From: Tricharina praecox
Taxonomy: Eukaryota
Length of the DNA stretch: 64,000 nt
Direction of reading: 5' to 3'
Assembly (NCBI RefSeq): GCF_024521635.1
Contig: NW_026250412.1
Span: 992,001 to 1,056,000, forward strand
Shown: positions 5,206 through 43,714 of the stretch, piece by piece
Position numbering within the stretch: position 1 is the first letter of the stretch
How the letters are laid out: the number at the start of each line of letters is the position of its first letter
Notes under the pieces: model-generated
Seen by the model: the letters and a program-made list of their open reading frames with translations, nothing else
Told to the model about the DNA's origin: nothing
Database searches by the model: none
Translations under genes and position numbers: made by a program

Positions 5206-6777
5206 ATCGCGCTATTTTCGGGCGGCAGAGCCTTCTTCGGAATTGGTGACTGACGAAAGAACAGGCGATTGGGTGATAGGATGCGAGTGAGTTTGGGGGC
5301 GACGTGGATGTTGCTGATGGTAGAGAACAAGTGGGTCTGAGTGTACGCGCTTGGACGTGAAATGTCGGGATGACATGAGCCTCAACGCTGGCCCGTCCGC
5401 AACCGGCTAGATTGCCAAAAGACCCATTGCTTACTAACGTTCACAGAGATCACTCGTCACTCCACTCATGTCGCCGGGATAAATTTTGTTATGTAACTGT
5501 TTAATGTGGGTAAACAGCGGCAAATTCGCTATTGAGATCTCGCGTTGGACACCTCCGACGAATCAGGGCGGTACTGAAATGACCTTCGGGCAATTACCTC
5601 AGTGAAATAACTATGAGCGGCGAGTACTTTCAAGGGCTTGAGGTACGCACTACGTGTGGCCTGTACCAATGGCAGAACTAGGCTGCGCAATCGCCTGGAG
5701 TTCATCTACTCATACCTATCACTCGGTTGACGAATAACAGTGCATTCATGGATGTACTAAAATGTAACTTCAAGTCATACCGTGGTGGTTACCAACGGCG
5801 AAAACAGAACCTTCACTATCTTCGATGGGTGCCATATAAGATCGCTCTAAGAAGTGAATATCAACCGTGGATGGTGATAGAATCATGGACCTAAACTCAT
5901 TGCCGTCCCCAAGCTCAACAAGCACCCGACCTGGAAATTGTGTTTCCTGACGGCATTGAGGACTGCCTTGTCCATGGAGCCACCATTATTTTCGGAGGGC
6001 CGCTGGGGCTGTGGTGAGACTTCCCAGGGAGCTTCTAGATCGTGGCAGATTAGAAAAACCGAAACGGACCTTAGAATCGGAGTTTTAACGGCTGATTCCG
6101 GAGTAAGTAAGGCCGAACTATTGATAGAGGCTTCACAGATCAGACGCGCTTTTATTACGAAAAGAGTCCTGCTACTCGGGAAAGGGCCATATCGCTACCC
6201 ATCACACATTTATCCTCTACTTTTTTTAATAGATTGTTCGTGCTCGGGTGAGCCGGGGGGGCTAAGCGTAGAGGCGAGGACACAGTGATGGCGGAGGCTA
6301 GAGGCTCGAGTCCAGTGAGGATGTGACTGCCGGCTGACTCGACTGCCCTGAGAGCGGAACCACCAGTGGACGTCAGGTATTCAGGATCTTTAGACTACAT
6401 TACAAAGTAGTCTGCACTGGAGGTTTCTCCGTGACATCCAATGTTCTTTCCCGCAACGTCATGAAGAGTACGGCTGGCGCTCTCGAAGTGCTTGGAGACA
6501 CCTTCTAGCAGCTTTTACTGCTGCATATTCATGTGTACATAGTCTCAGCACTGCTGATACCGAAGAGAGAGAGGCCTCAAATCCATTGACATCCATGTTG
6601 GGGAAGTAGGTAGCCTCCGATGGTGTTCACGCTGCCGGGGCGTCTACCATTCTCATTGTAAAAAGCGCCGGCATTGGGGTAGTCGTCGGGTCTTGTCTTG
6701 TGGAGGCGGGGCCGTTGGACCCGCTGGCAAGTAGCAGAGCGGAGGGGGTTTATGACGGTTGACACAAATCTTCACTC

Positions 6778-6899
6778 ACGGAAAAACCCCCCCGCGTAGC
6801 CTTGTCGGCTAGGCCACCGCCTCGGCGCTGAAAGCTCGTCGTTGAACTCCTGGGGAAGAGGGGTTTCCAAGCCACCCACCGGGGGTGGTGAAGGTTTTT
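6778..6899 (+). ncRNA. Family A putative Pol III structured RNA, copy A1
   Basis: ACGGAAAAACCCC...TAGCCTTGTCGG (A-box-like)...GTTGAACTCC (degenerate B-box)...GGGGTTTCCAAGCCACCCACCGGGGGTGGTGAAGGTTTTT; shared flanks extend ~6720-7005. Confidence 0.55.
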
Positions 6900-7297
6900 G
6901 TTCTTTTGCCGCTCCAGTTTTGCTCGCAGCCTGCATCTGATGTCACTCGGACGACGAGTGATTGTACATGCAGCAATCTTCCGAGTCGAGTCACGGTGAC
7001 GACAATGGGGTTTGCCTTCTTTGTTTACTATCACTTTATCTGTCTGGGCTATAGCTGGTGTATCTTCGATAAGGCAATGATGACGAAAATTGAGGCGTCT
7101 CGGCTGTGGCGTTGTGGATCTCGATCACTGCGCGCAGATGGCCCAGACTAGTAATTTCACGGTGAAGCTAACTGCCTGTCTGCAATGAAATAGTGGGCCG
7201 ACTCAAAGTCATCTCACTAGCAGAGCTATTTATTGTGGTAGACGTACATTCATTATCTCTTTGGCGGGCATTACAGACTCCCATCCCGATATCCTAG

Positions 7298-8467
7298 CTA
7301 ATACACCGTCGAGAACTCATACCTCGCATTAAATGTCAATAGACCATCCTCAGGCCCCCAGATCTGCTTTCTCCCCCACTCCGGGTTATTAATACCATCG
7401 ATCCAGTCCTCGGCCTCCATGACCACGCATCCGCCCTCCTGGATCACCGCCGGCCGTCCAGACAAACCCTGCGTACTCTTCCCAATGGGTTTCGTTCCAT
7501 TGGACGCCGCACAGCTGTAGATTTGGAACGCGGCCTGGTCGGTAAACACCTTGACCTCGACGCCGCTCCAAGGGCTGTTCAACCGCGCCACATATTGGTT
7601 CTCCTTGTCGTGGGGACCCACGAGGAACGCGTTATCGTAGAACGAACAGCCAGCGCCACAGTCGGGCCCCCGCTCGGTATCGTTGAGGTGCTTTCCAATC
7701 GCCTTCGGCTGCGACCAGAAGTCCGTGACGCTGCCGTTTTTGTTCGGTAGCAGCTCGCCAGTCGGGATCAGATTGTCGTCGACACCGATCCGCATGCCCG
7801 AGAACGGCAGGTGCAGCTCGTGATCGTACACTTTCTCCGAATCCGGATTGGCAAAGCCGTCGAGGTTCCAGTAGACGTGGCTGGTCAGCAGCAACGGCGT
7901 CTTCTTCGTCAGCGACAGGGCGGTGAGCGTGATGTGCCAGGTGTACGGCGTGAGCGTGTAGGTGCTCGTCGCCAGGACATCCCCGGGGAAGCCCATCTCC
8001 CCGTCGGCATCGAACAGCGAGAAGGTGATGCTCGAGTCCGTCAGCGCGGTGACCGTCCAGTTCCGATAATCCCATCCGTTGCTGCCGCCGTGCAGGGTGT
8101 TGGTCCCGTTGTGCTCGTTCGCGTCGACTTTGTACTCGACGCCGTCGATGGTGAACGACGCATTGGCGATGCGGTTGCCATACCGGCCCGGTACGCTGCC
8201 GTAGTGGTCGTGCCATGGGTCTTCGGTGTAGAACGTTGCGTTTTCCCAGCCTAAGACGACGTCCCGTGTGCTGTTGTGCTTATCCGCAACGAAGAGATTC
8301 GAGATCGCTGCGCCGTAGGGGACGAACGACGCGACAATGCCGGTGCTGCGGAGAGTGTATTTGCCGTTCGCATCGGGGGGAGGGATCGTTGAGTTCCATG
8401 GCAGCACCGCGGCGGAGGCGGTGGTGGCCAGGAGGATTGGAATTGAGGTCTTTGAGAAACGCATCAT
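7298..8467 (-). CDS. secreted aldose 1-epimerase (galactose mutarotase family)
   Basis: Intronless ORF, N-terminal signal peptide, motifs GRYGNRIA, LHGG, GFPGD, TSHVYWNL, DNAF, TDQ.A.QIY. Confidence 0.92.
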   Translation of the reverse strand: MMRFSKTSIPILLATTASAAVLPWNSTIPPPDANGKYTLRSTGIVASFVPYGAAISNLFVADKHNSTRDVVLGWENATFYTEDPWHDHYGSVPGRYGNRIANASFTIDGVEYKVDANEHNGTNTLHGGSNGWDYRNWTVTALTDSSITFSLFDADGEMGFPGDVLATSTYTLTPYTWHITLTALSLTKKTPLLLTSHVYWNLDGFANPDSEKVYDHELHLPFSGMRIGVDDNLIPTGELLPNKNGSVTDFWSQPKAIGKHLNDTERGPDCGAGCSFYDNAFLVGPHDKENQYVARLNSPWSGVEVKVFTDQAAFQIYSCAASNGTKPIGKSTQGLSGRPAVIQEGGCVVMEAEDWIDGINNPEWGRKQIWGPEDGLLTFNARYEFSTVY

Positions 8468-10193
8468 GTCGATATCGATCAATACAGTTTCGTATTGTGT
8501 AGATGGGGAAGCGGATACTTATCATTCCATATCTGCCGTCAATCCCGGATTCCCACATCCCGGATTCCCGTTTGAATCGTACCTTGTTCCTGGAAACCCC
8601 TCGCTATGAATTCCTCCGGCGGCTATGGGCGGAGAAATCCAGCGGGAGTGATGAGGAAGCTGTCTCGATTGACGTCGCTGCCGGCAAAATCCAACGGCTG
8701 TGCGCAAAAGAGCAAGCTTTGTGGCTTGCATGCGGTGGAAGATCGTTGAGAATGCAGGGGCCAACCCCGCGTTGTTATGCCTAAAGAACTCGACATGAGC
8801 CGGGGAAACGTGCGATCTGCACAACAATCATCCGACCCGGTGTATGGGGTATTAGCCGGCTTAGCGACCGCGAGAGTAAAGAAAACAACCGTGCATAGCA
8901 GATAACTTCCCCCTCCTATATCACGCCTCCGACTCGCCTCACCCCCATTCACCCAACCGACTGTGGGTGATACAAAACCTCGCGCTGTTGGGACTTATAT
9001 GGAGGCAAAGCAGATACGCAAGGCCTTCCTTGACACGCGTATGATAACTTCGATAATCAGGCTGGCAATATTCCGGGGACCGGGAATCCCCCACCGCGAT
9101 AGTAGAGGTTGGTAGAATCCTTCCTCTTTTATACGGAGTCTCCTCTCGACACGGTTCATGTAGCCCAGCTACCTAGCTTTTTGCCGGCGAAGAAGCCAGC
9201 ACGACACGCGTCGATAGAGTGGGGCATTACCCGTGTGAGATGACAAAACCAGGAATCGATTATCGCCCAGGCACCCACCCCGCATGGCGCTCCTGAAATT
9301 CATCACATCAATCTAAAAGGGAGCATTGCTGCCGCCAGCTCACGAACGCGGAAAGACTTCCTGTGCCATGGTCGATATGTGTGGAAACCGGGTATGGTTT
9401 GAAAAGGATTCCATGGATATGATATATTTTGGGGTTGGTGGTAGACGACATGAGAAAGGCGGTATTCCTCTCGGTAACTTTTGAGGATGCGCGACACTTT
9501 TGGCTGAAGTTTCTCGGTGAGGGAAGGGAAGTAAAGCAGGAAGCTGTTATCGTCAGCTCGGGAAGATTCTGGCTGTCACAATTGAGATTGTGGATGACAG
9601 GACGTGGTCTAGGACGATGCATGATGCGTGGGAGCTGTGACGGGAAAGTGAGATCCAGGCGGTATTTATCCATTTTTCATCACCAGTGGTGCGCCAACTG
9701 CTGCTGTTACGCTTCGCTAAGCAGCGGAGATACAGGAGCTCGGAGAGCTCAGAGTTATGCTGAGAAGAAAAATATTTCGTCATAGATTTGATTAATGGAT
9801 TTGCAGCGCGAATCGCATCGTGACCCGTTAAGTGCATAGAAAGTTTACATGGATTAGTTTGCTATTGTTTCATCATTGATTGCATGCGACATATCTAGAT
9901 TACGGCAATCTGTGTCCGCTCCCGGGATTGAGGTAGATATTCCGCATACAACCTTTCCAGACTACTCCCTCAATCGCTGATTTTTTTGTTTACTCAGTAA
10001 TTGCCTGCAATCGATGATGATCATGGCAATACATGTGCGCATTCCAGTTCCACGGCACTGTCCAACCCAACTTTCATCAAGCGGCTGTATCGTCACCGTG
10101 ACTTGACTCGCAAGATTAGTGCATGTCCGATCACTCGTATTCCGAGTGACATCGCATGCCGGCTGCTGGCAAAATTATTGCGGCAAAAAAATC

Positions 10194-10318
10194 AAAAACC
10201 TTCACCACCACCGGTGGGTGGCTTGGAAACACCCTCTTCTCCAGGGAGTCGAACGACGTGACTTCAGAGTCGAGGCGGTGGCCTAGCCGACAAGGCCACG
10301 CGGGGGGTTTTTTTCCGT
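10194..10318 (-). ncRNA. Family A, copy A2
   Basis: Reverse complement of the A consensus incl. B-box GTTCGACTCC; compensated CGAC/GTCG stem; TTATAA upstream at ~10341. Confidence 0.55.
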
Positions 10319-11391
10319 GAGTGAAGATTTGTGTCAACCCTTATAAACCCCTCTCCACCCCTCTCCCCGGCTCTATTACCAGCTGGGCTCAACGGCTCCG
10401 CCCCTCACCCAGTGATCTCCCTTCTACATACGTCACTCCTCTTTGATCGCAATGATGAAGAGTCGCAGCACCAAGAGTAACAGGTCTGCTAGTACTAACA
10501 TGCATACACCACCGTCAACACGGGACGTCGTGAGATAGCTACAAATGCATATAGGATTTGGACTACCATATTGCCGAGGATAGGTATTTTATGGCGATGG
10601 TCTGCCAGCGCTTCCAGGAAGCAGTATTTCTTTGAGGTGACTTCGGCGACGCACAGCTAAAGGCATAAACGCTGAGAAGCAACCAGCCCACATCTTATGC
10701 AGGGAAAACTCCTTGAAAACTCCTTGATGATGTCAGCGGAATACAAGGCAATACACTGCACCCAGTCCAAAAAAGCTCTTTTTTGAATTCGGTACCTAGC
10801 GTACTGGTGTTGACGAGTACTACAGTGTGCTGTCCTTACGACTACTGTGGGCTGTAGGCTATAAGTGCACTCACTACTCTACTGGTATGCCACGAAGTTC
10901 ATGCTCCTATTACTACCGGAGCTTGATGATGAGAGCCGGTTTTAATTAATCCCATGCACTTTGCTAAAACAAATGGTTTTTTTCTTCTTTCATCAATCGC
11001 GCGTAGCCTAACCTAAACTGTGGTGATGTACCCACATACAGGTCCAGTTTTTGTGTCTACGCTCGGTGAGGGAAAGGACTCCTGATTCATTGTGTTGCCC
11101 CCTCCCTTAGTTATTTCACCGGTAAGTAATTCTTCCGACCGTAGCATTCGTTGGAGAAAGAGAGAGAGATCTTTCTGCTTTATTTCGCATGCAGCCTATC
11201 TAGACTATGGCTAACCGTCGCACTGCTTTTCTGCCCACTCTGACTGGCCGGGGGTTAGGACCTCGTTACTAGCCAGCACGATGTGGCGCCGGTAGCATTC
11301 GTTAGGGGCGCTTACTGCATGTCCAATCACTCGCCGTCCGTGTAACAATGCATGTATGCCACCTGCAAAACCAATATTGCGACAAAAAATC

Positions 11392-11513
11392 AAAAACCTT
11401 CACCACCCCCGGTGGGTGGCTTGGAAACCCCTCATCCCCAGGGAGTCGAACGGCGAATTTTCAGCGCCGAGGCGGTGGACTAGCCGACAACGCCACGCGG
11501 GGGTTTTATCCGT
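11392..11513 (-). ncRNA. Family A, copy A3
   Basis: Near-consensus copy on the minus strand. Confidence 0.55.
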
Positions 11514-12437
11514 GAGTGAAGATTGGCGTCAAACCTCATAAACCCCTCCCGCTCTGCTACCAGCACGTGGACGGCTCCGTCCCCTACCCGGTGTTCTCCC
11601 CAAAGAGTAACAGCTATGCGGGCACCAACGCACACCATCGTTAACACAGGATATCCATTATGAGATAGCTTCAATTACAGGATATGGACTATTTCCTATA
11701 ATATCTTACAGCGATGGTCTACCAACGCTTCAAAGCCGGATTTTTGGAGGTAAGTTCAGCGGCGTTACGCGTACAGCTGAAGGGATAAACCTTCAGAGCC
11801 AGTCTACCCACTGTGTATGAAAGGAAAACTTCTTGATGAATGTCAGCGGATTACCAGGCAATACACTGCACCCAGTGCAAAAAGCCCGTTTTGGACTCGG
11901 TGGCGTACTGGTTTTGCCAGGGCTCGTTCGCCAATGCCTCTCCAGGATGGAAAGCGGCAAATGGAGAGATAGGGAACACACAAGGAGAAAGAGAAGAGAG
12001 TGGTTGATCGTCTATTCTGTAGATGTCATCGCCCCGCTACAGCGGTACTACTGTGGGCTGTAGGCTTTAGGTGCGCTCCGTACAGGCCTGTCAATACGTT
12101 CGTTACTCTTATTACTACCGAAGCGTGATGGGCATAGTCAATTTCACTTCATCCGAAGCATTGCTGAAACATATCCTTTTTTCTTCCTTCATCAATGCCG
12201 CACAGCCTATCTAAACTGTAGCGATGTATGTACACATACTAGTCCAATTTTCTTGTTTGCACCCGGTGAGAAATAAGGAATCATTACGGAGACCCCCCTG
12301 CCTAAGGTATATCACCGGTAGGTAATCCTTCCGATCGCAGCACCCCCTGTGGCGCCATATGACAATCAAATTATCGCACTCGACTACCGAGTGACATCAC
12401 ATGTATGCCATGCGCAAAACTAGAGCGGCAAAAGAAC

Positions 12438-12532
12438 AAAAACCTTCACCACCCCCGGTGGGGGGCTTGGAAACCCCTCTTCCCCAGGGGAGGCGGTGGC
12501 CTAGCTGACAAGGCGACGCGGGGTTTTTTCGT
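12438..12532 (-). ncRNA. Family A, copy A4 (internal deletion removing B-box; probable pseudo-copy)
   Basis: CCCCAGGG joins directly to GAGGCGGTGGCC; ~25 nt missing relative to A3. Confidence 0.4.
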
Positions 12533-12959
12533 CATTGAAGGTTGGCGTCAACCCTCATAAACCCCTCCCGCTCTGCTACTAGCCAGCGGGTCCCACTGAC
12601 GTCTCCTAATACACACTGCCGTATCGTAATTGGATCCGCGAGACATCCCTCCTTTCCCACTCATTAATATCGCGGATATCGCCCCACTTGTAATATCTCT
12701 CGTCTTATGTAATTTCATGTGAACGAACCTGAGCCAGCTTTCGGAAAGGTCTTTCCTCCTGGCCATGGGTGACAGAAATGACAGAAGTCAAAGGTTGTTG
12801 CTCTGGCCGCTGTGCGAGAGGATGCTATCGGCTTAATGGACTGCACTCTCATCCACGGCTGCCTCCCATGTCCCTGCCAGCACCTAGTCGCGGACCACAG
12901 CAACGGAGTTTTGCTGCACTGGTTGCTGCGCGAGAGAATCGCATTGATTTTACGGGCAT

Positions 12960-14178
12960 CTACAGTGGGTGGTTATGAGCCGTGACAGCGACTAGTTCAG
13001 CCGCCGGCACGCAAGGTACTTCAACCTGTCTCCAACGAGTGGCATGTCACGTTTGCTCGCTCGTTCCATCTGATGAGCAAGTTTTGGTGGGGCCCTGCTC
13101 GCGGGAAATTTACCCCGACTCCGGCGATTGGTGTCACGTTTTGGTGGGGTCTAGCGGTCTGGCGGCGGCGAAAATGCTTAGAACCTAGCGGCTCCTCAAT
13201 CACTTATAAAACCCCCCCTTCTGCTCCTCCTTCTCTCCTTCTCTTTACAACCGTCACAGCTTCCATTGAACGTCGAATATTCGCCTTCCTTCCCCCCATC
13301 CCTCCTACTTTTCCACCCTCCATCCCTCCTTCCTTTCCAGTCACTCCCCCTCCCTCCTTCATTCAACCTGAGCCCGAGCTCAATCCTCGAGGTACGTCAT
13401 TCTCTCTTCCCCACATTTTACTTCCAGGATAACCTTACAGAGCTATCCTGCTCAGCCGTAGTAGCGAGGAACTGAGGTCCGTGCAACCAGTCTACAAAGT
13501 AGACTGTTGCAGCACCAACAGACGGATCCAACCTTCGAGGCTGAGTAGAAAAGATCCGAGGACGGGGTTTTCTCTTCTGCTGCCGGCGAAGTTCTTTCCC
13601 CCTTCCGCCAGGATTCCAAGTCGGGTGAGAGCCGACTTGCTCCCCGTGGATGGCTTCTCCGAAACCGGGTGACAGACGGTTTCGTGTTGACGAGGAAGAA
13701 ATAAACTAAAAAAAGTATAACTTCCGAGTTCTACGCGTATAACCTGGTCTACTATCCCCCCACGTTGTACGCGGAGGTTTTCTTCCTTTGTTGTGAGAGA
13801 GAATTGAGCGAAGGTCTTTCCTCCAGGCCATGTGTGTCATGTGTGAGAGACATGCCACACGTATGGCCAAGGCCCACGCCTCCGAAACTGGGCTACAGAC
13901 GGTTTCGGACGAGCAAATAAATAACCAAAGAAGTATAACGTGGTCTACTACCGCCCCAAGTTATACGCGTATAACGTGGTTTACTATCCCCCCACGTTGT
14001 ACGCGGAGGTCTTCTTCCTTTCATAGCAAAGGTCTTACCTCCTGGCCATGCATGAGTGAGATGCATGCGCCATTAGCGAAATGTTGTTGCTCTGGCTGCT
14101 GTGCGAGAGGATGACATCGGCTTGTTAATCGACTGTGGACTTGTGGTCTGCACTCTCGATCCACAGCTGCCTCCCGTG
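12960..14178 (+). repeat. Family B long structured non-coding element, copy B1
   Basis: TATGAGCCGTGACAGCG...CTTATAAAACCCCCC, CT-rich tract, hairpin-rich body ending TCCACAGCTGCCTCCC; a fragment of the B 3' end also precedes it (~12745-12870). Confidence 0.85.
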
Positions 14179-14904
14179 CTTTAGCCACGGCGGCGGCTAA
14201 CATGTATTATGGTTTCCAAAACTCCATGTTCCATCAATCACCTCTCTTGAAACAACGTTTCTATCGCGTGCGGAACGCTGAATGCAAACGAATTCTTGTG
14301 ATACTGGTAGATGGTTCGATCGTGTCCGAGTGCTTTCCATGATTCGGACTAACGAGCCCTACTCGCGATACTCTAGACGCCTTGCCGCGCTAATACCCGA
14401 TCTACTACTACCTTATCAGGAACTTCTATCATAGTAGAGTACTAGTCGGCGGTGTCGACTGTGGTCAAGTCGTGCTCCTCGGCATGATGCGGCATGCCGA
14501 AGCCGTGCTGTGCCGCTGTTTAAACACATTCCGATACATATGGAGTGAGTAGCGAGCACAGGTCGGCAAGAGCATCGTTCGTTCCGGGCGTTCCCGGCTG
14601 TGTGCGTGTGCGGGTCCATCGCCGGATGGCTGGAGGGATGAATCCGGAGGCATTGATTGAACTTTATGTAGGTCCTGTATATAACAAGGAGGGTGAAATC
14701 TACTCTATTATACTGGCACCTCGCAGGTCTGTGCTTTAACGGGCCTACAGCGCAGTCGTAAAGCTTCACAGGTACTATGAGGTTGCTACTAGCTTGGAGG
14801 GTCGAGCTATCAAATGTGAAGGTATGCAGTCCGTAGTGGCACTGCTTCTGAGTGGCTGTTATGTGTTAGAACGTGCTCATAACCGCGCGCGGAAAATTTA
14901 CAGC

Positions 14905-15025
14905 ACGGAAAAAACCCCGCGTAGCCTTGTGGGCTAGGCTACCGCCCCGGCGCTGAAAGCTCGCTGTTCGACTCCCTGGGGAAGAGGGGTTTCCAAGCCA
15001 CCCACCGCGGGTGGTGAAGGTTTTT
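14905..15025 (+). ncRNA. Family A, copy A5
   Basis: Full copy; GTAGCCT/AGGCTAC compensated stem; B-box GTTCGACTCC; T5 terminator. Confidence 0.55.
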
Positions 15026-17168
15026 GGTTCGAGCCACGGTGAAGGTTTTGTTTTGTTTAATCATCATGGGATTTCGCCTTAGTAGATAGGTCATGGCAGA
15101 TTGCATGTCTGCTTCCACCCGGGTGTCACCGATATCTGGCCACGAGCTCTATGCGGGATCCACATTGCTCTCCGCCCAGCCCTACGCTCGAGCCAAACCT
15201 AAAATGTCGCATTCGATAGTTTACTGTTTACCCTTAGTCGGTGAAGCTACTCATGGCGGCGAAGCATCACCGCCATCACACACTCTCTCGCCAAGGACGC
15301 CACGACGCCACGACGCCAATCGCAGGCTACATCCGATGCTTATCGTCTCGCAACTCGAGTACATACCATTCATCTTCGAGCGCGAGTACGGTCCATCCCT
15401 GACGATAGACCACGGTAGACCGGGGTCGGGGGGGGCAGCACTCCTTTTCCGCTAGACTGGGGAGGTAGGCAGTTCCGTCCGTTCAATCGACCTCGCTGCG
15501 GAGCCCCGTGCCCCCAGAGTACAAGTGTGGGCGAATCCTACTCTATACAGAAGGTCGGAATGTCGACTGTGATGTGATTCGCGTGCTCGTTGGGTACCGA
15601 CCGGTTATGTCGTTAGCATATATCCGTCGCTTCGGCGATACCCTGTAGGGGTGTCTTAATCTCGGTGGTCTCCTACGACGTGGACTTGAGACACGACGTT
15701 AACTCTCGTCTTTCCATTTACTACATAGGGCAAAACGCGTGCACGACGAGGGTGGATTTCGGCCGCCTGCGTTTACGGAGTTTCGAGTACCGTAGATGGG
15801 ATGTAGATCACTTCATGTACAATATAATTGCTCAAGAGTAATAGAGTAGGGTTACTGTGGTGAATCGTTTGTCCGGGCGCCAGTCCAATTCTGTGGAGCG
15901 GGGCCGTCCCGTGCAGGTTCTCCAGAGGACTATGTACTTCCTACTAGGTTGTCCGTCCAATGCGGAGAAAAATTATTTAACGCCGAGAAACCTATTCGAT
16001 TTCACCAGGGAAGTTTGAGGACCCATAATGTAACGCCCAGATAGGTACCCTACGGGTACCCATCGGTACCTGATACCTAACATCAGCGTTCTGTGCTGAC
16101 TAAGTAGTCTTATAGACAACCGTGCAACCCACATGATCTTCCGACTCAATCGCATTCAACCCAGACGCAATGGTTTTCACACCGACACGATGCTGGTAAT
16201 ACGTCGGTACTCAACCTCATTGAAGTTAGACGATCTGGGATGATGTTGATCGACGGTCCGTACTAGAGTACTCTACGCGCAGACGCTCTGTAGCGGTGGT
16301 GCGGGGTAACCACTCTAGAAGGCAGCGCTAAGGATGCGCGCCTCGTTGGACGTCACATCACGTGGTCAGGAGGACCGCCGTCCGTCCAGTCCTCCACCAC
16401 ACCAGACCGGACTGTTTAGCGTCCCCTGAAGAAGCCAACCGGTCTAGGTAGCCAAGTACATATGCCGGACGTGGTAATCCCGCCCGGCTCAACTCAAATT
16501 CCCCAAGGTACCTACTTGGTTCAACGGTTGGTACCTATAAGGTACCGACAGGCCGCATGCAGCCCTCGGCGATGTAGATGCAATCACCGGGGTTCCGGTA
16601 AGAGTGCGAGTTCATGTCACGAATCCCGGCCCCCACCTTGCGCCCGGCTCTCTTTTTCTTTGGCTTTCTCATATTGTGCTTTGCATCCGGATTTTACTGG
16701 ACTTTTCCTTCTCCCGAGACATACACCGGGGGCGCAACTCAAAGTAAAAACCGACTATACAACGAAGGTTGCAGCCGTTCGAGACGATCTTGGGCATCGT
16801 TGAACCCGTCTTCTGTGTACCTTATACTTGTTCGCTTTCTAGATCTGCACTGTACAGTCTGTACTAATGTACTCAGGTTCTAACCCAGTGATACCGCACT
16901 CAGGTACCAGCCCAGCGATACCACTTTTCCACACGGCCGGACCGTCAAAGTGACCCATTCGTCTCATCCTGAAGATTTATCCCTCTTCATCCTCGGAACT
17001 CCCCCTTCGACACCGCTTCGTCTCTCTAATCTTCCAACTGCCTTCCGTACCTACACTTCGACACCCCCGCATTCCTCTTCTGCAACCTCACCATCCTCTA
17101 TTCATCACTCGTCCCATACGAAAAGCAAAATAGAATAATACAACCCTTTCAACACGCACAACGCAAAT

Positions 17169-18991: not shown

Positions 18992-19022
18992 GGTAGCAGA
19001 GCGGGATGGGAGGGATTTATAA

Positions 19023-19381
19023 CAGGGCTGTCAACCGTCCGTCCCATCCGTCTTTGAGGTTTCTCGACCCGGGGCGGAATAAGTCGCGTTGAGGAGACCA
19101 AGGACTACAGTCTTCCGGGCTGGAAGAATGAGGACCGATACCCTATAGGGCCCGGAATGGACTGGGACACTAGGACACTGCTAGTGGCGTGGCGCCACAC
19201 CGTGGCGCCGGTGTGCGCACGTGTGGCTGTGCGGCTGTATATCTCAGTGTCTCTCACGGTATAGAACTTTCACACAATCCTCCGGATGGAATGGATCAGT
19301 CCTCTGGAAAGCTTGCCCGGGACGGGACGGGCCTACGGTCCACTAGTGGACTGTAGTCCGGACAGACGGTTGACAGCCCTG
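19023..19381. mobile_element. hAT-like MITE, 359 bp
   Basis: TIRs CAGGGCTGTCAACCGTC.GTCC / GGAC.GACGGTTGACAGCCCTG; degenerate 8-bp TSD ATTTATAA / GTTGATAA (6/8). Confidence 0.8.
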
Positions 19382-19411
19382 GTTGATAAGGGTTGACACA
19401 AATCTTCAATC

Positions 19412-19532
19412 ACGGGAAAAACCCCCGCGTGGCCTTGTGGGCTGGCCACCGCCTCGGTGCTGAAAGCTCGCCGTTCGACTCACTGGGGCAGACGGGTTTT
19501 CAAGCCACCTACCACGGGTGGTGAAGATTTTT
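19412..19532 (+). ncRNA. Family A, copy A6
   Basis: Full, somewhat diverged copy; TGGCCTTGTGG and GTTCGACTCA boxes; T5 end. Confidence 0.5.
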
Positions 19533-20044: not shown

Positions 20045-21775
20045 CCGTCTGCAAAAGTACTGGGATAGATAGGAGAATTGGTAGGAAGATAGAAGTATTT
20101 GGTTGCTTGCTTTTTCTTCTTCTCCGAGCCGGTGACCTTCTATATATACATACTATGTCTGCTCTCGGAAGATAGACCCGCCGGCTACACCAGACTGCAG
20201 AACATATATCCTCTTCCGGATACAGTTTGCATGGCTGTCTCTTCTTTGACTCCTTCACAAAATGTTCCTTAAAACTCACCATCGCCAGCTGCCTTACAGC
20301 GAACATTAGGAGAGATCCTTCATGTGCTCCAGATGCCGTAATATGGCAGACGTTGTGTATGAGCACCTGCAGTGGGCGGTTATACGCCATGACAGCGACT
20401 AGGTAGTTGAGCTGCTGGCGCGCGAGGTGACTTCAACAACCACCACTCCCCAGCGAGTGGCGCGTCAGGTGCTATTGTCGCTTGTTTCATCTGATGAGCA
20501 AGTTTTGGTGGGGTCTAGCGGTCTGGCGGGACAGTTCGACCCGTCTCCGACGATTGGCGTCACATTTGCTCGCTCGTTTCACAGGATGAGCAAGTTTTGG
20601 TGGGGTCTAGCGGTCTGGCGGGACAGTTCGACCCGTCTCCGACGATTGGCGTCACATTTGCTCGCTCGTTTCACAGGATGAGCAGGTTTTGGTGGGGTCT
20701 AGCCGTCTGGCGGCGGCAAAATACTTGGAACCTAGCGGCTCCTAAATCACTTATCAAACCCCCCCCCTTCTGCTCCCCCTTCTCTCCTTCTCTTTACAAC
20801 TGTTACAGCTTCCATTCTTCGTCAACTATTCGCCTTCCTTCCACTCATTCTTCCTTCCTTCCTTCCTTCCTTCCACCTGAGCCCGAGCTCAATCCTCGAG
20901 GTACGTATTTCTCTGTCTTCCCCACTTTTTACTTCCAGGACTATCCTGCTCAGCCGTAGCAGCGAAGAACTGAGGGGTCCGTGCAACCTCTACATAGTAG
21001 GCTGTTGCAGCACCAATAGACGAATCCAACCTTCGAGGCTGAGCAGAAAAGATCCGAGGACGGGGTTTTCTCTTCTGCTGCCGACGAAGTTCTTTCCCCC
21101 ATCCTCCGGGAGTCCAAGTCGGTCAAGACTCGACTTGCCGACTTGCTCCCGGTGGATGGCCTCTCCGAAACCGGGTGACAGACGGTTTCGTGTTGACGAG
21201 GAAGAAAAAAACAAAGAAATTATAACTTCCGAGTTATACGCGTATATCGTGGTCTACTATCCACCCAGGTTACCTGTCCGCAGAGGTTTTCTTCCTTTGT
21301 TGTGAGAGAGAATTGAGCAAAGGTCTTTCCTCCAGGCCATGCGTGTCATGTGTGAGAGACATGCCACATGCGTGGCCAAGGCTCATGCCTCCGAAACCGG
21401 GCTACAGACGGTTTCGGACGAGCAGATAAATAACCAAAGAAGTATAACGTGGTCTACTACCGCCCCAAGTTATACGCGTCTAACGTGGTTTACTATCCCC
21501 CCACGTTGTACACGGAGGTCTTCTTCCTTTCATAGCAAAGGTCTTAACTCCTGGCCATGCATGAGAAGCATGCATGCGCCATTGGCTAAATGTTGTTGCT
21601 CTGGCCGATGTGCGAGACGATCACATCGGCTTCTTAATCGACTGCGGACTACACTCTGGATCCATGGCTGCTTCCCGATGTCTCCATGGTTCTTGGCTGT
21701 CAAATATACTGAGATCGATAGGACGATAGGTAGGACGATGTGACTATTCTGTTGCTTCCTTCTTCGTCTCATCGT
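20045..21775 (+). repeat. Family B, copy B2 (modules X-Y-Z-core-X)
   Basis: Collinear with B1/B3/B4; the ~75-nt X block (..GATCGATAGGA.GATAGGTAGGA.GATG..GTTGCTT..) occurs at both ends (~20045-20120, ~21697-21770). Confidence 0.85.
20493..20712 (+). repeat. 92-bp tandem repeat (2 copies identical by eye + partial third) inside B2
   Basis: GATGAGCA(A/G)GTTTTGGTGGGGTCTAGC.. starts at 20493, 20585, 20677. Confidence 0.9.
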
Positions 21776-21861: not shown

Positions 21862-21982
21862 ACGGAAAACATCCCCGCGTGGCCTTGTCGGCTGGCCACC
21901 GCCTCGGCGCTGAAAGCTCGTCGTTCGACTCCCTGGGGAAGAGGGGTTTCCAAGCCACCCACCGGGAGTGGTGAAGGTTTTT
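21862..21982 (+). ncRNA. Family A, copy A7
   Basis: Full copy, TTTATAG ~28 nt upstream, B-box GTTCGACTCC, T5 end. Confidence 0.55.
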
Positions 21983-23455: not shown

Positions 23456-23577
23456 GTGGAAAACCGCCTGCGCGGCCTATGCAGTGGTTTAGACTACACC
23501 ACTGGGCTACACACATCGCGGAGAAGCATTGCTCACCGGTTCGTGCTCAAGACACCCACCTCGGCGGGAAGGTTTTT
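23456..23577 (+). ncRNA. Family A, highly diverged copy A8
   Basis: TTTAAAAG upstream, GGAAAACC start, GGTTCG box, CAAGACACCCACC..GAAGGTTTTT end, downstream GATATCACTCG; different interior. Confidence 0.35.
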
Positions 23578-37212: not shown

Positions 37213-38916
37213 GGTGTGTGATGGTTCTAGGATGGCGAGGTTGTTATGATATTTCATTCTAAGAGCCGAGATAAACAAACCGGTGTGAGTAAGAGGTCGA
37301 AAAGATTTGCAAAGGAGAAAATTTGTAGCGGGCGGAGGAAGGTGGAGAGTGGAGAGTGTGAAGAGAGAAGGAAAGAGTGGGAGAGCAGTGGGAGAGCAGT
37401 GGGGGTTTTGTAGAGGTTTCTAAACCTCAAACTTGCACTAGCGGAATCACGATCTCCTCTCTTCCCTACGGGCCAACTCGCCCGCTCTTGCCACCTGTGC
37501 TCTGTCCCTTCGTTTGAAGGTTTTCCAAATCCTTTCTATGGGGCTTGCGTGGCTTTTGCCGCCCGGCATTCCTGCTCCCGCCGATGAAGACGGTCACATA
37601 TACGCCGCCCCTGCCGCGAGCACTATCAGGTCATGACTGGAAGCTTCCCTCTCTTCCAAGTCCCGCCATCTCTTCTCCCCTTTCCCTTTCCCTTTTGGAG
37701 CGAATGCGAAATCATGAAGAACCGCCGCGTAGGCTGCAGAAAGGTCGAGTGATAATGTATGACCAGCGGCAGCTGCCGGCAGTTGCAGTCCCAACTCCTG
37801 GGTTCGAAACGCTAGTCTTAAGGCTCAGGCGGCTGTCGCGTGTCCCGTCCATTTTCACCTGACTGTGCATGTCATTCGACTCACCATGCCATGCTCCCCT
37901 AGGTACACAGTGATCGAGATATCCAGGCATGCACGAGACCCGGCTGTGCACCGTACAGCAAGCACAGGAGATTTACGCAGTTCACGCAACATACTACCCG
38001 CTAAATTTCTAAGCGAGCGGCGACATACAACCAGACGACGAAATCGGACAGGAACGGGGAGGAAAGCAGAGTCAACAGCTCGTGGTGGTTGGATTTGAAG
38101 GAAGACGTGGGAAGAAGAATGATGTAGAGGCAAGCGTGGACGCGGACACCAAAACATCGGGCGACCGCGATGGTCAAGAGACCAAGACCCCAGGGCAGGC
38201 ACTTGGAAGTTGGACGAGCAGCTGGCTGAACCCAGAGCTACCTTGGCCTTAGTTGGCAGGGGATTCCAGCAGCTCAGCGGAATCCCGGACTCCCAAAGAT
38301 CGGAGCGTGGCGAGCTGACCCTGAACAAGGAGAACTTGATGGAGGGTGGGGAAATTCGAGAGGCCTCCTCTCTCTCTCTCATTATATACAGGAAAGACGA
38401 TCAAGAACAGCGCGATATCCGCGGTAAGGCCAGCAGCTTATCCACAGCAAGGACAGTGTGGTATCCGTGAGACCAGGAGCGAATGCAGTAAATACCCACG
38501 GCAGAAACCACGAACGACAGCGAAGTCAGTGTGCAATCCGCGGTGAATAGCCTATAGTGTGCATCCACGGTGAGGCAGGCCCGACACAGCAGGACGGCGT
38601 AGGACAACGATGCATACCCGCTGTACGAAGACCAGGGCTGTCTGACAGCGAAGGACGGCGAGTATTGACAACTGCATGTTCCATCATTCATCAGATTTTG
38701 TGCCGTTACCGCAAGTAGTGGAGAATTACAGTGACATTCGCAAGTACTACTATTTGCCGTCAATAGAGACGACAGGTACGCATTCATTACGCCGCATTGC
38801 ATGTATCCTGGGGTATATGGGGACTACATACGATGGTTCAACACCTGGTGTGGTTGATAAGCCTGTTGCGCATGCTGGCGCGACGGGTTCATAACCGCGC
38901 GTAGTAAATTTACAGC

Positions 38917-39027
38917 ACGGAAAAAACCCCGTGTGGCCTTGTGGTCACGCACCCGGCGGAGTTAGCATGGACAACGGTCCATCTATCGGGGTTTCCAAGC
39001 CACCCACCGGGGGTGGTGACGGTTTTT
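38917..39027 (+). ncRNA. Family A, copy A13 (alternative interior)
   Basis: Outer stem and 3' hairpin are consensus, flanks match A5, interior is different. Confidence 0.5.
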
Positions 39028-39207
39028 GGTTCGAGCCACAGTTCGGTTTTTTTTTTTGTTTAATCATCATGGCCTTCGGCCTTAGCAGGTCATGGCAGAT
39101 TAGATGTCTTTTTCCAGCCGGCTGTCACCGACCTCTGGCAGCGAGCTGGATACCAGTTTCCTGTTGCTCGCCGCCCAGCCCTTCCCTCGAGTCAAACCTA
39201 CCCGCTT

Positions 39208-40258
39208 ACCGCTCTGTCAAATATACTAGGATCGATAGGAGGATAAGTAGGAAGATGTAACTGTTTTTTCTATGAGCCGTGACAGCGAATAGTTCAGCCG
39301 CCGGCGCGCGAGGTGACTTCGACCCCGTCTCCGACGATTGGAGTCAGGTCTGCTCGCTCGTTTCGCCGGACGAGCAAGTTTTTGTGGGGTCTAGCCCTTG
39401 GCGGCAAAAACTCGCTTGGAACCTGGCGGCTCCTAAATCACTTATAAAACCCCCCATTCTACTCCTCCTTCTCTTCTTCTCTTTACAACCATCACAGCTT
39501 CCATTCTTCCTCGACTACTCTCCTTTCTTCCTTCCTTCCTTCCCCCCATCCTGCCTTCCTTCCCACATTCCTTTCCTTCCTTCCCTCCCTTCCTTCCACC
39601 TAATCTTGAGATCAACCCTCAGGTACGTCGTTCTCTGTCCCCCGCTTTTTACTTCCAGGATAACCTTACAGGGCTATCCTGCTCAGCCGGAGTAGCGAGG
39701 AACTGAGGGATCCGTGCAACCGGTCTACAAAGTAGACTATTGCAAGAGACGGATCCAACCCTCGAGGCTGAGCAGAAAAGATCCAAGGACGGGGTTTTCT
39801 CTTCTGCTGCCGGCGAAGTTCTTTCCCCCTTCCGCCAGGATTCCAAGTCGGGTGAGAGCCGACTTGCTCCCGGTGGATGGCTTCTCCGAAACCGGGTAAC
39901 AGACGGTTTCGTGTTGACGAGGAAGAAATAAACTAAAAAAAGTATAACTTCCGAGTTCTACGCGTATAACCTGGTCTACTATCCCCCCACGTTGTACGCG
40001 GAGGTCTTCTTCCTTTCATAGCAAAGGTCTTACCTCCTGGCCATGCATGAGTGAGATGCATGCGCCATTAGCGAAATGTTGTTGCTCTGGCTGCTGTGCG
40101 AGACGATGACATTGGCTTCTTGATTGACTGCGGTCTACACTCTCGATGCACGGCTGCTTCCCGGCGTCTCCCTGTTTCTTGGCTATCAAAGATACTAAGA
40201 TCGGTAGGAGGATAGGTGGGACGATGTGGCTGTTTTGTTGCTTCCTTCTTCGTCTACT
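39208..40258 (+). repeat. Family B, copy B4 (X-Z-core-X; single internal unit)
   Basis: X block at ~39208-39270 and ~40183-40258; lacks one ~220-nt internal repeat unit. Confidence 0.85.
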
Positions 40259-40267
40259 ACGGGTTAG

Positions 40268-40594
40268 CAGTGCAGGCAACAGCCCGAAAAGCCCATGGGC
40301 TGGGCTGGGGCTTGTGGGCTGATCTGATAGCCCGGGCTGGCGCCGATGGGCTGGGCAGGCTGGATCCTAGAGTTGGTAGGGTAACTTTACGACAATAGAT
40401 AGGAAATCCGTTGGTCAACGAAGAGTAGCAGTGAGACGAATCACAACAGCTCACTCGCTGCAGCCCACCAGCCCGGGCGCGCCTGGCTGGTGGGCTGCTC
40501 AAAGCCGGGCTGCCAAGACCAGCCCAGCCCGGGCAGGGCTAGACGCGCCGGGCTGCGGGCTGGATTTGATTGGGCTGGGCTGTTGCCTGCACTG
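40268..40594. mobile_element. hAT-like MITE, 327 bp
   Basis: 18-bp TIRs CAGTGCAGGCAACAGCCC/GGGCTGTTGCCTGCACTG; many subterminal GGGCT/AGCCC repeats; no convincing TSD. Confidence 0.75.
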
Positions 40595-40913
40595 TCTGTT
40601 CGTACGTAGTGTTATATCTTTGGTGCGCTCTATAAGCCAGCTGAGAATAGATATGTAAACGACACTGCGTCGTTGTTCTTATCCGTCACGTGGCACACAC
40701 CACTTTATAAGAATCGAATTCATGTTTCTGGTACGGATCTACCGCAGCGTGAGATGGAATAATCATCCAGACGATCAGTTGTGGGGGCCCCGGGGGTGTA
40801 TCGATGAAGCAGGACAGGTTCCGATCTGGCGGGCGTCGCTTCGTTGCCGTTGTTATTGTCCCATCACGGGGTGGAACACACCACTTTATATTTTCCAATT
40901 TGCTGTTTCCATC

Positions 40914-42755
40914 ACGGAAAAAACCCTGCGTGGTCCAGTGGTCCCCTAGGGTACAAGTAATGAGGCAAACTAGCATTTTATGGTCAATGAGGTCGCAAGA
41001 AACACCATCCTAAAATGATTTCACTCAATTAGTGAATGGAATGAGGTCCAAGATGTCGCATTAACGGAGATGTCACTCAATGCAGCAGAATGATGAATGC
41101 GACAAGACGTAGAATGCGCTGGGTTTTGAGATGGTATTGTTGCAAAATGCGATATTTTGGATAATTTGCAGTATTATAAAATGCGTTACATTCATATGTG
41201 GTACTAGTATACGGCTTGTCCTCCTATGCCTTCCTCCATTTGCGCCGCAGCGTACCTCCCTCTCCCGACCGCGGATAGCACACTCTCCTTCCGCAGTCCT
41301 TGCTATACTTGCCGTTCTCGCCGCTGTTCTTGCTGTCCTGCGCTGACTGTCAGCTGTTGGTAGTCCCATACTCTCGCCGCCGCGGGTACCACACTCTCTT
41401 CGCCGCGGATACAACACTGTTGTGGTGGAAGAGTGGTGGAGGAGCGATCTGTGAGGAGGAGCTGTCTGCGAGAGGGGGGACTGTCGGCGAGGAGGAATGT
41501 CTGCGAGAGGGGGGACTGTCGGCGAGGAGGAGTTGACAGCGAGAAAAAAAGCTACTAGCGAGAAGGAGGAGTGGTCAGTGAGGAAGAGTGGTCAGCGAGA
41601 AGGACTTACCAGCGAGGAGGAGTGATCAGCGAGATGAAGAGGAACTGTCTGCGAGAGCAGGAATTGCGGCCCCAGAAGGAGTTGCGGGGGAGTAGGAGCT
41701 ATATGAGAGAGGAGATATCAGCGGGAGTAGCAGTGGCAGTTGCGGCAGGCGGGAGAAGAAGTTGCGGCGGGGTAGGAGTTGCGGCGGGAGTGAGAATTTC
41801 AGTGGCGGCGGGAGTAGCAGTAGCAGTTGCGGCGGGATTTGAGAATAGCAGTTGTGGTGGGAGAAGGAGCTGTGATGATGGCGAAAAGAAGAAGAAGAGG
41901 AGGAGGAGGAGGAGGAAAACCCCACCATGCCCGCCAATGTTGATGCACACCACTAACCACATTCGGTTTCTCCGGCAGATACGTCCTTATCCTGCTGCCT
42001 CCTTCCGCCGACAGCTCTGAGCTCTCTCGCCGGGCCTTGATAGTCTACGGGCCGGCCGAACTATTCCCAGGCCTGGCCGTTTACAAGTCCGTTGTGTGGT
42101 GGCAGACGAGAGTAGATGTTGATCATCTATCCCGTAAATGATGGTGATGACTGGAGAGAGAGATGAGGTGGAGGTTGATCGTGTATTCTGTAGACGATGA
42201 TGAAGATGATGAGAGAGAGAGATAAGGCCTCTCGGACGGCCTTCAAGTTCGCTGCCTGCTCGCTGCCTGCCCGCTGCCTGCTCGCTGCCTGCCTGCTGCC
42301 TGCCTGCCCGCTGCCCTAGCCATCCACACTAACTACATCTGTTTCCTCTCGCCGACTACTTGGGTACTCTTATACATACCACAACGCATTCTATGACAAT
42401 GGCGCATTCATCACCACCACCATCGCAGCTGGTTGCTTGCACGTCTTACGTATTAACTATGAGATTCGCATTTACTAACATCACTGCAATCAGCACGAGG
42501 GAGTTTGCTGCATTTACTAGCAATAATGCATTTAGCACGGCGCGTATCTGTCACCAAATGAGGAGCATCTCATTCTGCGACATTTCGGGTGCAGTCAATG
42601 AGTGATTCACTCATTCCTCGTACCCTAGGGGGTCTAGGGCCACGCAATCGACGAGGGGAGCTGAGGGAAAGACCCCGGTTCAAAACCGGGTGAATACCTT
42701 ATGTATTTAGCTCTTGGGATTTCCAAGCCACCCGCCGGGGGTGGAGATGGTTTTT
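40914..42755 (+). ncRNA. Family A, copy A14, split by a transposon (40914-40942 + 42634-42755)
   Basis: Rejoined sequence has A-box TGGTCCAGTGG, B-box GGTTCAAAACC in a CCCGG/CCGGG T-arm-like stem, consensus 3' hairpin and T5. Confidence 0.55.
40943..42631. mobile_element. non-autonomous CMC/CACTA(EnSpm)-like DNA transposon, 1689 bp
   Basis: 22-bp TIRs CCCCTAGGGTAC(A/G)AG(T/G)AATGAG; 2-bp TSD GT; subterminal AATGAG/CTCATT repeats; interior of simple repeats, no transposase. Confidence 0.8.
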
Positions 42756-43603
42756 GTTTTTTGCATCATGGGTTAAGCACGGAATATCACTCGATAGCAG
42801 TCATCACCTGACATGCTTTGTGATGGCGGCTCCTTTATAGTTTAATCATCATTGCATTCAACCTTGGTAGATCATGGCAGATTACACATCCGTTTCCACT
42901 CGGTCTCTGGCACCGACCGCTGGCTGGAAGCTCGATACTGGTTCCCTATTGCTCTCCGCTCAACCCTCTCCGCTCCGTGCGCTGCAAAAGGAGTCCGTCC
43001 CGTCTATGGGTCCGGACGGACTGGACTTAACTGGACTGGGCTATGTATGTAGAAAACTGCTTTCGCGATGATAAAACGCTAGAGACCTCTAGCTCTTTAC
43101 GGGGCTTTCATCAAAACATTGACCTCAGCCGATGCTGGACTTCCCCGAGGCGTGTAATCTGGAGGTGTCAAATTGTTAGTACCCTTCCATATATACAGAA
43201 TATGTCTGCCATTAGGAGACAGACCCGACAGCGATACCAGACAGCCGAACACATCTCCTCCTCCAGATACAGTTCGCATGGCCGAGTCGTTGACTCCTTC
43301 AGAATAGTGCTCCTTGAAATTCACCACCACCTTACAGCGGTTATGAGGAGAGATCCCCCATGTGCTCCGTACGGCGTAATCTGACATACTCAACCCGCCC
43401 CGCGAGGTTCATCCGTTGCCAACCACGGAACCAAGAACTCGCCGTGATCGTGGTTTTTACGAGTCGATGGCTTGGTGTGCGTTCCGGCTCGGTTCCATGG
43501 TTCATCTAGGTACTATGGCTTTGTCTGCTGGCAGGTTTGAGGCGTCTAAGTGAGTATCAGGTGCGTAGCTACATGTTATCATCGGAATCAACATTCTTCT
43601 TGT

Positions 43604-43714
43604 ACGGAAAAAAAACCCCTGCGTGGTAGGCCACCACCCAGCGCACGGAGCTCCCGGTCCGACTTCAGGGGGAGAGGGGTTTCCAAGCCACCCACCGGGG
43701 GTGGTGAAGGTTTT
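43604..43714 (+). ncRNA. Family A, copy A15 (shortened/diverged interior)
   Basis: ACGGAAAAAAAACCCCT...AGGGGTTTCCAAGCCACCCACCGGGGGTGGTGAAGGTTTT. Confidence 0.45.

Follow-up and report, generated by a model that had tools for sequence, protein, structure and literature searches.

Vault and Y RNAs are products of RNA polymerase III (Pol III) of about 90-140 nt, which are closed by pairing between their conserved 5' and 3' ends and have a variable centre, and the genes of vault RNAs combine internal A and B boxes with upstream elements. Fungi harbour tRNA-derived short interspersed elements (SINEs) such as Mg-SINE and Foxy, and to our knowledge few Pol III products of filamentous fungi have been recognized beyond tRNAs, 5S, U6, 7SL and RNase P/MRP RNAs. 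Rodents possess in 4.5SH and 4.5SI lineage-specific small RNAs of SINE-type origin with internal A/B boxes, whose genes need a TATA-like box and keep it at -31/-24, where SINE copies are random; 4.5SH exists in hundreds of copies, each in a tandem 4-5-kb repeat, and was thus amplified as DNA together with its promoter flank (accessible part of PMC7279448). Here we describe a unit of about 120 nt that is repeated about 15 times, on both strands, in a 64-kb stretch of Tricharina praecox DNA (contig NW_026250412.1, positions 992,001 to 1,056,000; this whole stretch is called the window, and positions are counted from its first nucleotide), and we argue, with moderate confidence, that it represents a lineage-specific, tRNA-derived, multicopy family of Pol III small-RNA genes that multiplies as DNA. 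The unit is closest in kind to the rodent 4.5SH genes and in architecture to vault and Y RNAs, and is a member of none of them. With 4.5SH/4.5SI, as portrayed in the accessible part of PMC7279448, it shares A-/B-box-like motifs, a TATA-like box near -30 and amplification at the DNA level, whereas the two are unrelated in sequence, the host is a fungus, the copies are partly dispersed and lie on both strands with only a short 1.1-kb array, and the family is known from sequence alone. As for vault and Y RNAs, the unit matches no Rfam vault, Y or other model and the resemblance is architectural only.

That a unit of ~120 nt recurs on both strands was the core of the original prediction, and it is borne out by three kinds of search. 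A 26-nt word from the 3' part of the unit occurs 8 times in the window when up to 3 mismatches are allowed (expectation 0.00 over 100 shuffles), BLAST with one copy recovers 10 copies in full and several in part, from both strands, and a covariance model trained on 11 window copies (filters off, hits reported at E<=1) yields 16 hits. Twelve of these span the model as full or near-full copies, namely the 11 training rows and the diverged copy 13; two are 3' fragments, belonging to copies 12 and 14 (Table 1); and the remaining two are weak (E 0.3), antisense and inside copies, because the hairpin is palindromic. Two more copies are evident from alignment alone. Counted from the A of CACGG through the last T of the T5 run, a full copy is 121-125 nt long. 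The 25-nt deletion of copy 4 takes out the inner hairpin and the B-box-like motif. Copy 8, missed by the model, retains TTTAAAA near -30, a 5' GGAAAA, the CAAG..CACCCACC word and GGTTTTT, and is probably a decayed copy. Two pieces that had been taken as a single copy do form one, copy 14, which a 1.69-kb element, bounded by 35-nt inverted ends, divides within hairpin 1.

The TATA-like box, mostly TTTATAA, the CA start, the A- and B-box-like motifs, the closing stem, the terminal hairpin and the T5 run occur in 10-12 copies, and a second T-run often follows the first. The consensus and the spacing proposed beforehand hold across copies (TATA-like box at -29..-23, A-box-like motif at +19, B-box-like motif, terminal T5), and the type-2 Pol III layout with an additional TATA box is present, its landmarks being kept in the sister family of a second organism described below. 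The tRNA-like spacing of the two boxes exists at the level of motifs only, the window versions being degenerate (+19 and about +64).

Table 1. Coordinates of the unit copies, of the parts of copy 1 and of other features; scores are those of the covariance model, and the model-hit column gives the extent of the corresponding hit.
Feature	Position	Strand	Model hit	Evidence or remark
Copy 1, whole homologous block (upstream, RNA unit, downstream)	6702-7002	+		BLAST extents, alignments
Copy 1, TATA-like box TTTATGA (-29..-23)	6749-6755	+		sequence reading
Copy 1, predicted start, A of CACGG	6778	+		
Copy 1, predicted 122-nt RNA	6778-6899	+	6778-6899	134.7 bits
Copy 1, A-box-like motif (+19)	6797-6808	+		
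Copy 1, B-box-like motif (near +64..+72)	6841-6849	+		
Copy 1, 3' domain: closing-stem 3' strand and terminal hairpin	6860-6894	+		
Copy 1, T5 run	6895-6899	+		
Copy 1, imperfect palindrome containing GATGTCACTCGG, about 35-75 nt past the T-run	6931-6973	+		inverted repeat I1
Copy 2 (125 nt), array unit 1	10194-10318	-	10194-10316	127.4 bits
Copy 3 (122 nt), array unit 2	11392-11513	-	11392-11513	143.7 bits
Copy 4, array unit 3, 25-nt internal deletion	12438-12534	-	12438-12534	93.4 bits
Copy 5 (121 nt), flanks common with copy 13	14904-15025	+	14904-15025	143.6 bits
Copy 6	19412-19532	+	19412-19532	131.2 bits
Copy 7 (121 nt)	21862-21982	+	21862-21982	141.1 bits
Copy 8, strongly diverged	23457-23577	+		alignment only; missed by the model at E<=1
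Copy 9 (121 nt)	28420-28540	-	28420-28540	142.2 bits
Copy 10 (123 nt), 364 nt from copy 9	28782-28904	-	28782-28904	126.8 bits
Copy 11 (121 nt)	31611-31732	-	31611-31732	143.2 bits
Copy 12, fragment: terminal hairpin, T-run and downstream region only	33118-33238	+	33118-33148	16.6 bits, model positions 87-117
Copy 13, 5' and 3' ends intact, centre different	38916-39027	+	38916-39022	44.1 bits; not a training row
Copy 14, older type, interrupted in hairpin 1	40914-42753	+	42716-42753	5' part from 40914, 3' part to 42753
Copy 15 (about 111 nt), hairpin 1 shortened	43605-43715	+	43606-43715	98 bits
Miniature inverted-repeat element in copy 6 upstream region	19023-19381			359 bp
Non-coding 1.69-kb element in copy 14	40943-42631			
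~1.0-1.2-kb repeat family	13135-14365, 20683-21769, 29793-31041, 39375-40255	+		
~1.0-1.2-kb repeat family	50061-51014	-		
LINE example, metagenome locus L011	4709-5506			unit-oriented coordinates
LINE example, metagenome locus L014	847-1089			unit-oriented coordinates

Mean pairwise identity among 9 window copies (36 pairs) rises from 0.52 far upstream to 0.82 in the TATA-like box (9 columns), stands at 0.77 in the spacer, 0.80 in the 5' part and 0.77 in the centre of the predicted RNA, reaches 0.93 in its 3' domain and 0.96 in the T-run, and falls to 0.42 in the 46 columns after the T-run, with 0.59 in a downstream palindrome. As read from this profile, the block is conserved in the manner of a transcription unit, from promoter box to terminator. 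When 32 copies from the window and from metagenomes are considered together, the 39-nt 3' domain has 37 variant cells among 1248, of which 20 fall in 5 loop positions and 16 of those 20 represent one shared inherited change; TTTT is invariant in all 32. The palindrome past the T-run, whose arms are GCATG/CATGC (outer) and TCACTCG/CGAGTGA (inner), recurs at the equivalent place in copies 2, 3, 4, 9, 10 and 12, and a related word, GAATATCACTTG, lies at the equivalent downstream place in the metagenome family.

Relatives of the unit were collected from JGI metagenome contigs by one scan with a degenerate 25-nt pattern, which gave 20 loci (labelled with an L below), and the covariance model of the window matches every one of them. 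The first ~25 nt and the last ~40 nt of these sister units are almost identical to the ends of the window RNA, while the centre is rebuilt and longer, overall identity being ~65%; a TATA-like GTTTATGA stands at the same distance as in the window, though the spacer has diverged. In them, TGGCCTAGTGG agrees fully with the A-box consensus and GGTTCGAC, within a T-arm-like hairpin, agrees with that of the B box; the family is therefore visibly tRNA-derived. Judging from these motifs, it most likely descends from a tRNA or from the head of a tRNA-type SINE, and it belongs to neither. It had been predicted that the unit is no tRNA and has no cloverleaf, which stands: ARAGORN finds 0 tRNA genes in the window and 0 in the 20 related loci, and Rfam reports no tRNA in the window at the gathering score, nor when the threshold is relaxed to E<=10 for copy 1 and to E<=1 for 8 related loci. 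What was overlooked is the tRNA-like ancestry that the two motifs of the relatives reveal. Beyond tRNA, a search of the window with Rfam 15 gives 0 matches at the gathering score (5S, U6, 7SL, RNase P/MRP, vault, Y, 7SK and small nuclear RNAs (snRNAs) included), and relaxed searches return chance-level hits only for copy 1 (ctRNA_p42d, E 1.2; PVT1_4, E 8) and, in 8 related loci, mir-434 (E 0.25), located in an unrelated tandem repeat. No description of the family was found in the openly searchable literature, where a 17-nt word of the unit has no match either.

Copy 14 is 78-82% identical to loci L013, L014, L006, L008 and L017; it is the older, metagenome-like type, and the form of 121-125 nt is a derived, shortened version. 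The upstream region of copy 15 is likewise nearer to that of the metagenome family, and the upstream regions of diverged copies align better to it. Besides the units, the loci and the window share one 100-nt repeat only; the loci represent different genomic sites and, probably, a different species. A SINE ending in poly(A) was considered for these relatives and rejected, an A-run ~110 nt past the T-run being internal, with homology continuing beyond it. Two loci from different samples, L012 and L015, are unrelated up to a point 16 nt ahead of the 3' hairpin and from there on agree at 99.8% over 634 nt, a switch that could be a rearrangement within the unit or an assembly chimera.

The manner in which the family spread can be read from what the copies have in common outside the predicted transcript. 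Homology beyond both transcript ends, claimed from the outset, is confirmed by BLAST and alignments: all aligned copies, the diverged ones included, possess the TATA-like box and remain homologous as far as at least -75, and the units of the relatives likewise share untranscribed upstream sequence. No A-rich or simple-repeat tail is seen in the copy alignments, and neither flanking direct repeats nor terminal inverted repeats were found at the 3 of about 10 full blocks tested, with a tool that does detect genuine terminal-inverted-repeat elements elsewhere in the window. Copies 2-4 are arranged in tandem at a period of ~1.1 kb (spaced 1.0-1.2 kb), with homology between the spacers of copies 2 and 3; a flank of 330 bp is common to copies 5 and 13, 14871-15201 matching 38883-39200 in BLAST; and larger duplicated segments of the window also carry units. 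The retained promoter flank, the lack of poly(A) and of target duplications and the 1.1-kb tandem array therefore point to spread at the DNA level and not of the SINE type, and on these grounds we endorse two further proposals of the original prediction, namely that the family is no classical SINE and that it moves as a DNA cassette.

Regarding the product, the proposal of a ~120-nt RNA with a closing stem and hairpins is upheld in part. RNAalifold arrives at the same elements, that is, a closing stem pairing GGAAA..CCCC with GGGG-TTTCC, and three hairpins, one in the A-box region, a small inner one and a terminal one (CCACCC / GGGTGG). In 13 related sequences, 90.4% of the 324 cells of the proposed helices are paired, as compared with 36-56% when the partners are slid; this agreement is in part circular, the same sequences having served to derive the structure. 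A guide or primer role was considered and set aside: the 11-mers of the unit, sense and antisense, have 8 scattered matches elsewhere in the window, with no cluster resembling a primer-binding site or a target.

An independent line of evidence comes from the relatives. Intact units preceded by 200 nt or more of sequence are found at 12 loci, and 10 of these (L001, L002, L004, L005, L007, L009, L011, L013, L014 and L017) have directly upstream a degenerate retrotransposon without long terminal repeats (non-LTR), that is, a long interspersed element (LINE); L006 and L015 have none, and L006 looks like an empty site. The LINE is oriented opposite to the unit in 18 of 18 BLAST segments, with its 5'-truncated end towards the unit, and the truncation points vary (LINE positions 848, 1265, 1291, 1571, 1580 and 1789, of which 1265 is common to L002, L004, L007 and L011), the longest copy being that of 2.1 kb in L017. 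Junctions lie at about -46 to -65 by sequence reading (BLAST ends give -62 to -98), and exact 14-nt target duplications, unrelated in sequence, occupy -60..-47 in L011 and -61..-48 in L014, two loci where the spot was re-used, an older LINE fragment standing just past a younger one. Motifs of the reverse-transcriptase, RNase H and CCHC types occur in the reading frames of L017; the match to Pfam RVT_1 is weak (E 2.4e-5, below the cut-off), and a homologue of 1354 aa with 44% identity has endonuclease, reverse-transcriptase and RNase H domains. Where 0.5-3.5 kb of downstream sequence is available, the LINE does not resume past the unit, and we therefore ruled out that the unit inserted into LINEs. 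Comparison of the relatives' downstream regions with the LINE reference, L017:300-2400, gives one 33-nt BLAST match (L001, E 8e-4) and nothing at the tail. By eye, an 8-nt word, TCCAAGCC, is common to the 3' end of the LINE and the 3' domain of the unit, which could be chance. In the window, repeats directly upstream of the units show no consistent family or distance.

Insertion of this kind is described for Dictyostelium, where TRE5 inserts 40-54 bp, or more narrowly about 44-54 bp, upstream of tRNA genes, in opposite orientation and through TFIIIB, and for NLTR-B, which inserts 39-64 bp upstream of tRNA genes (accessible part of PMC5911963). The LINEs of the related organism are comparable in being 5'-truncated, of APE type, placed 46 to ~65 nt upstream at a re-used spot and, in two cases, flanked by target duplications that differ in sequence, and their opposite orientation is that of TRE5 at tRNA genes, as given in the same part of PMC5911963; they differ in that the target is not a tRNA gene, the LINE has RNase H and CCHC, and the host is a fungus. 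By this analogy, the geometry fits a Pol III initiation complex seated on the units.

From the anatomy of the sequence, the pattern of its conservation, the persistence of both in a second organism and the geometry of the LINE insertions, all of which are observed, we infer transcription, the polymerase, the ends of the RNA and the possibility of a function. TFIIIC would bind the internal A-box-like (~+19) and B-box-like (~+64) motifs, TFIIIB would be positioned on the TATA-like box at about -29, and Pol III would start at the A of CACGG and terminate in the T5 run. The product would be an RNA of 121-125 nt, or about 135-145 nt in the related organism, whose 5' GGAAA..CCCC would pair with the 3' GGGG-UUUCC and close the molecule around the A-box-region hairpin and a fast-evolving central arm, and which would finish with the near-invariant terminal hairpin (CCACCC / GGGUGG) and an oligo-U tail. 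The family would have grown by tandem and segmental duplication of a ~300-bp block that carries its own promoter, with no retroposition. Given the conserved ends and the variable centre, the analogy with vault, Y and rodent 4.5SH RNAs suggests a protein-bound scaffold.

Several observations weigh against such a family of Pol III genes. Covariation is weak: the check was run, and both sides change in 4 of 26 pairs, which 46 of 500 shuffles equal, and related sequences can outdo shuffles without any structure; the best-conserved helices are invariant and therefore uninformative on pairing; and folding of single sequences is no better than that of shuffles (z +0.12 sense, -1.22 antisense). The central arm is deleted in some copies (copy 4; L006 and L008). 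As to expression, no transcript of the units was seen. We compared the assembled contigs of 4 runs, none of them recorded as RNA, and the organism is present in two soil DNA runs. In the two runs guessed to be RNA, the neighbouring gene at 7176-8789, an aldose-epimerase transcript, is covered with no differences, and the contigs over the units amount to one of 151 nt with a depth of 2.1 (14986-15040), it being understood that assembled contigs cannot decide the presence or absence of a small RNA. The sequence after the T-run, palindrome included, is conserved in both organisms, which a gene model leaves unexplained. The LINE is absent from the window by blastn and tblastn; the LINE evidence is drawn from another organism's metagenome contigs, and the LINE could be specific to this repeat rather than to Pol III complexes. 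Finally, a conserved head and tail around a variable body is a pattern of SINEs as well.

This last point introduces the rival that we take most seriously, unlikely as we judge it, namely a non-autonomous retroposon, a tRNA-derived SINE or SINE-like element, in which the head would be kept as a promoter and the tail hairpin for the reverse transcriptase of a LINE, most copies being dead insertions. Like tRNA-derived SINEs, the unit has a tRNA-like head with A/B boxes, many copies on both strands and variants with a rebuilt body; the summed contig depth over the unit stretches is ~55-120 in a soil run, against ~7 in single-copy flanks (a depth, not a copy number); copy 12 consists of the 3' part only, as 5' truncation would leave it; LINEs adjoin the units of the relatives, and the 8-nt word in both, unless it is chance, would speak in the same sense. 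Against this, upstream homology that includes the TATA-like box reaches at least -75 in every copy, which a Pol III transcript cannot carry; the unit keeps its untranscribed promoter and an internal terminator, the T5 being strictly conserved, often doubled and within the homologous block; an A-rich or simple-repeat tail is wanting, the A-run of some relatives lying inside a longer shared flank and not at an end, and so are flanking direct repeats at the three blocks; copies stand in a tandem 1.1-kb array; and the adjoining LINEs run in the opposite orientation, beside the untranscribed side of the unit. A quite unlikely alternative, in our opinion, would have selection act on the DNA and not on the RNA, the unit being a TFIIIC/TFIIIB-binding module that serves as a chromatin boundary or is tolerated as a safe landing pad for retrotransposons, and the RNA a by-product. 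The best-conserved internal motifs are promoter elements, RNA structure has weak covariation to show, the units sit within 37 kb that are gene-poor and rich in repeats, and the LINE insertions of the relatives pile up at one upstream point with nested re-use in L011 and L014; yet conservation is highest in the 39-nt 3' domain, which belongs to neither box and immediately precedes the terminator, and a role of DNA only leaves this unexplained.

The size of the homologous block, ~300 bp and thus exceeding the RNA, would also be understood if the unit were cargo or an end piece of a DNA transposon (a miniature inverted-repeat transposable element (MITE), a Helitron or another) or a passively duplicated segment with old tRNA-pseudogene motifs, the more so as the window is a patchwork of duplicated segments in which other DNA transposons were active, two of them inserted into copies. 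We regard this as improbable: the three blocks tested have neither terminal inverted nor flanking direct repeats, identity across the block is far from flat (0.42-0.96), and the second organism keeps both ends almost unchanged while centre and flanks have diverged. Much less probable still, to our mind, is a gene of the Pol II snRNA type or a part of a longer transcript, with the TATA box serving RNA polymerase II (Pol II) and the U-run a protein-binding site. A TATA box at -30 is equally compatible with Pol II, the U-run next to a hairpin loosely resembles an Sm site, and a palindrome is conserved downstream of the T-run; however, A-/B-box-like motifs occur at tRNA-like spacing, the motif GGUUUUUGU misfits the Sm consensus, conservation collapses right after the T-run, and Rfam gives no match to an snRNA family.

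If the units are transcribed as Pol III genes, they would provide a high-copy, lineage-specific RNA with strongly conserved ends, and hence a new ribonucleoprotein to seek. A family of this sort would be a fungal case of a tRNA-like sequence becoming a gene family that multiplies as DNA, like rodent 4.5SH, and such units would go mis-annotated as SINEs or unannotated in fungal genomes. The LINE pattern in the relatives offers a cheap proxy for Pol III occupancy. In the accessible part of a 2018 review, the table restricts position-specific non-LTR targeting of Pol III genes to social amoebae (PMC5911963), and the pattern would therefore extend such targeting to fungi; the accessible part of a review of yeast transposons mentions no such non-LTR element (PMC7175516). 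Were this confirmed, it would be the first fungal non-LTR retrotransposon position-targeted to Pol III-type genes, evolved independently of Dictyostelium TRE5. It is tempting, though more doubtful than the gene family itself, to go further and to see in the units an undescribed class of fungal Pol III RNA, a closed-stem molecule of about 120-145 nt with near-invariant ends and a freely evolving centre, possibly present in at least two Pezizomycete-like fungi and serving, like vault, Y and 4.5SH RNAs, as a scaffold for proteins; its genes might be specifically targeted by an APE/RNase H LINE through a nick 46-47 nt upstream of the start.

The long open reading frames (ORFs) of the window encode fungal housekeeping domains (Swc3, SGT1, DUF726, coatomer beta, aldose 1-epimerase and short-chain dehydrogenase), and the best named relatives of the DUF726 protein are from the Pezizomycetes Sphaerosporella, Pyronema, Wilcoxina and Morchella, at 52-58% identity, which marks the host as an ascomycete close to this class. 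The part from 6.7 to 44 kb is a gene-poor patchwork of repeats, and no Pfam domain was found in ten long ORFs tested across the repeat-rich 8.5-52 kb. The MITE splits the upstream region of copy 6 at the TATA box; it has 22-nt inverted ends that are 95% complementary and 8-nt flanks ATTTATAA / GTTGATAA, and we take it to be hAT-like. The 1.69-kb element in hairpin 1 of copy 14 is non-coding, its ORFs being devoid of Pfam domains, and its imperfect inverted ends begin with CCCTAGGGTAC; this end motif is also found downstream of the units in L006 and L009. Members of the ~1.0-1.2-kb repeat family are 83-92% identical, lie 7.5-9.6 kb apart and contain internal short tandem repeats, and Pfam finds no domain in those of their ORFs that were tested. 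Just upstream of this repeat, a 92-nt tandem unit with a CTGATGAG-like word (family D11) occupies 20448-20703, and also occurs at 13027, 29742 and 39324; it has no hammerhead or other Rfam match at the gathering score. A word of ~30-55 nt around GCATGC..TATCTAGA, at 11156-11216 and 9869-9900, has a very high summed contig depth in all four runs compared, hundreds to thousands against ~7 in its flanks, and sits at the ends of long contigs in both runs guessed to be RNA; it is perhaps a short repeat of very high abundance, or a transcript end that is shared.

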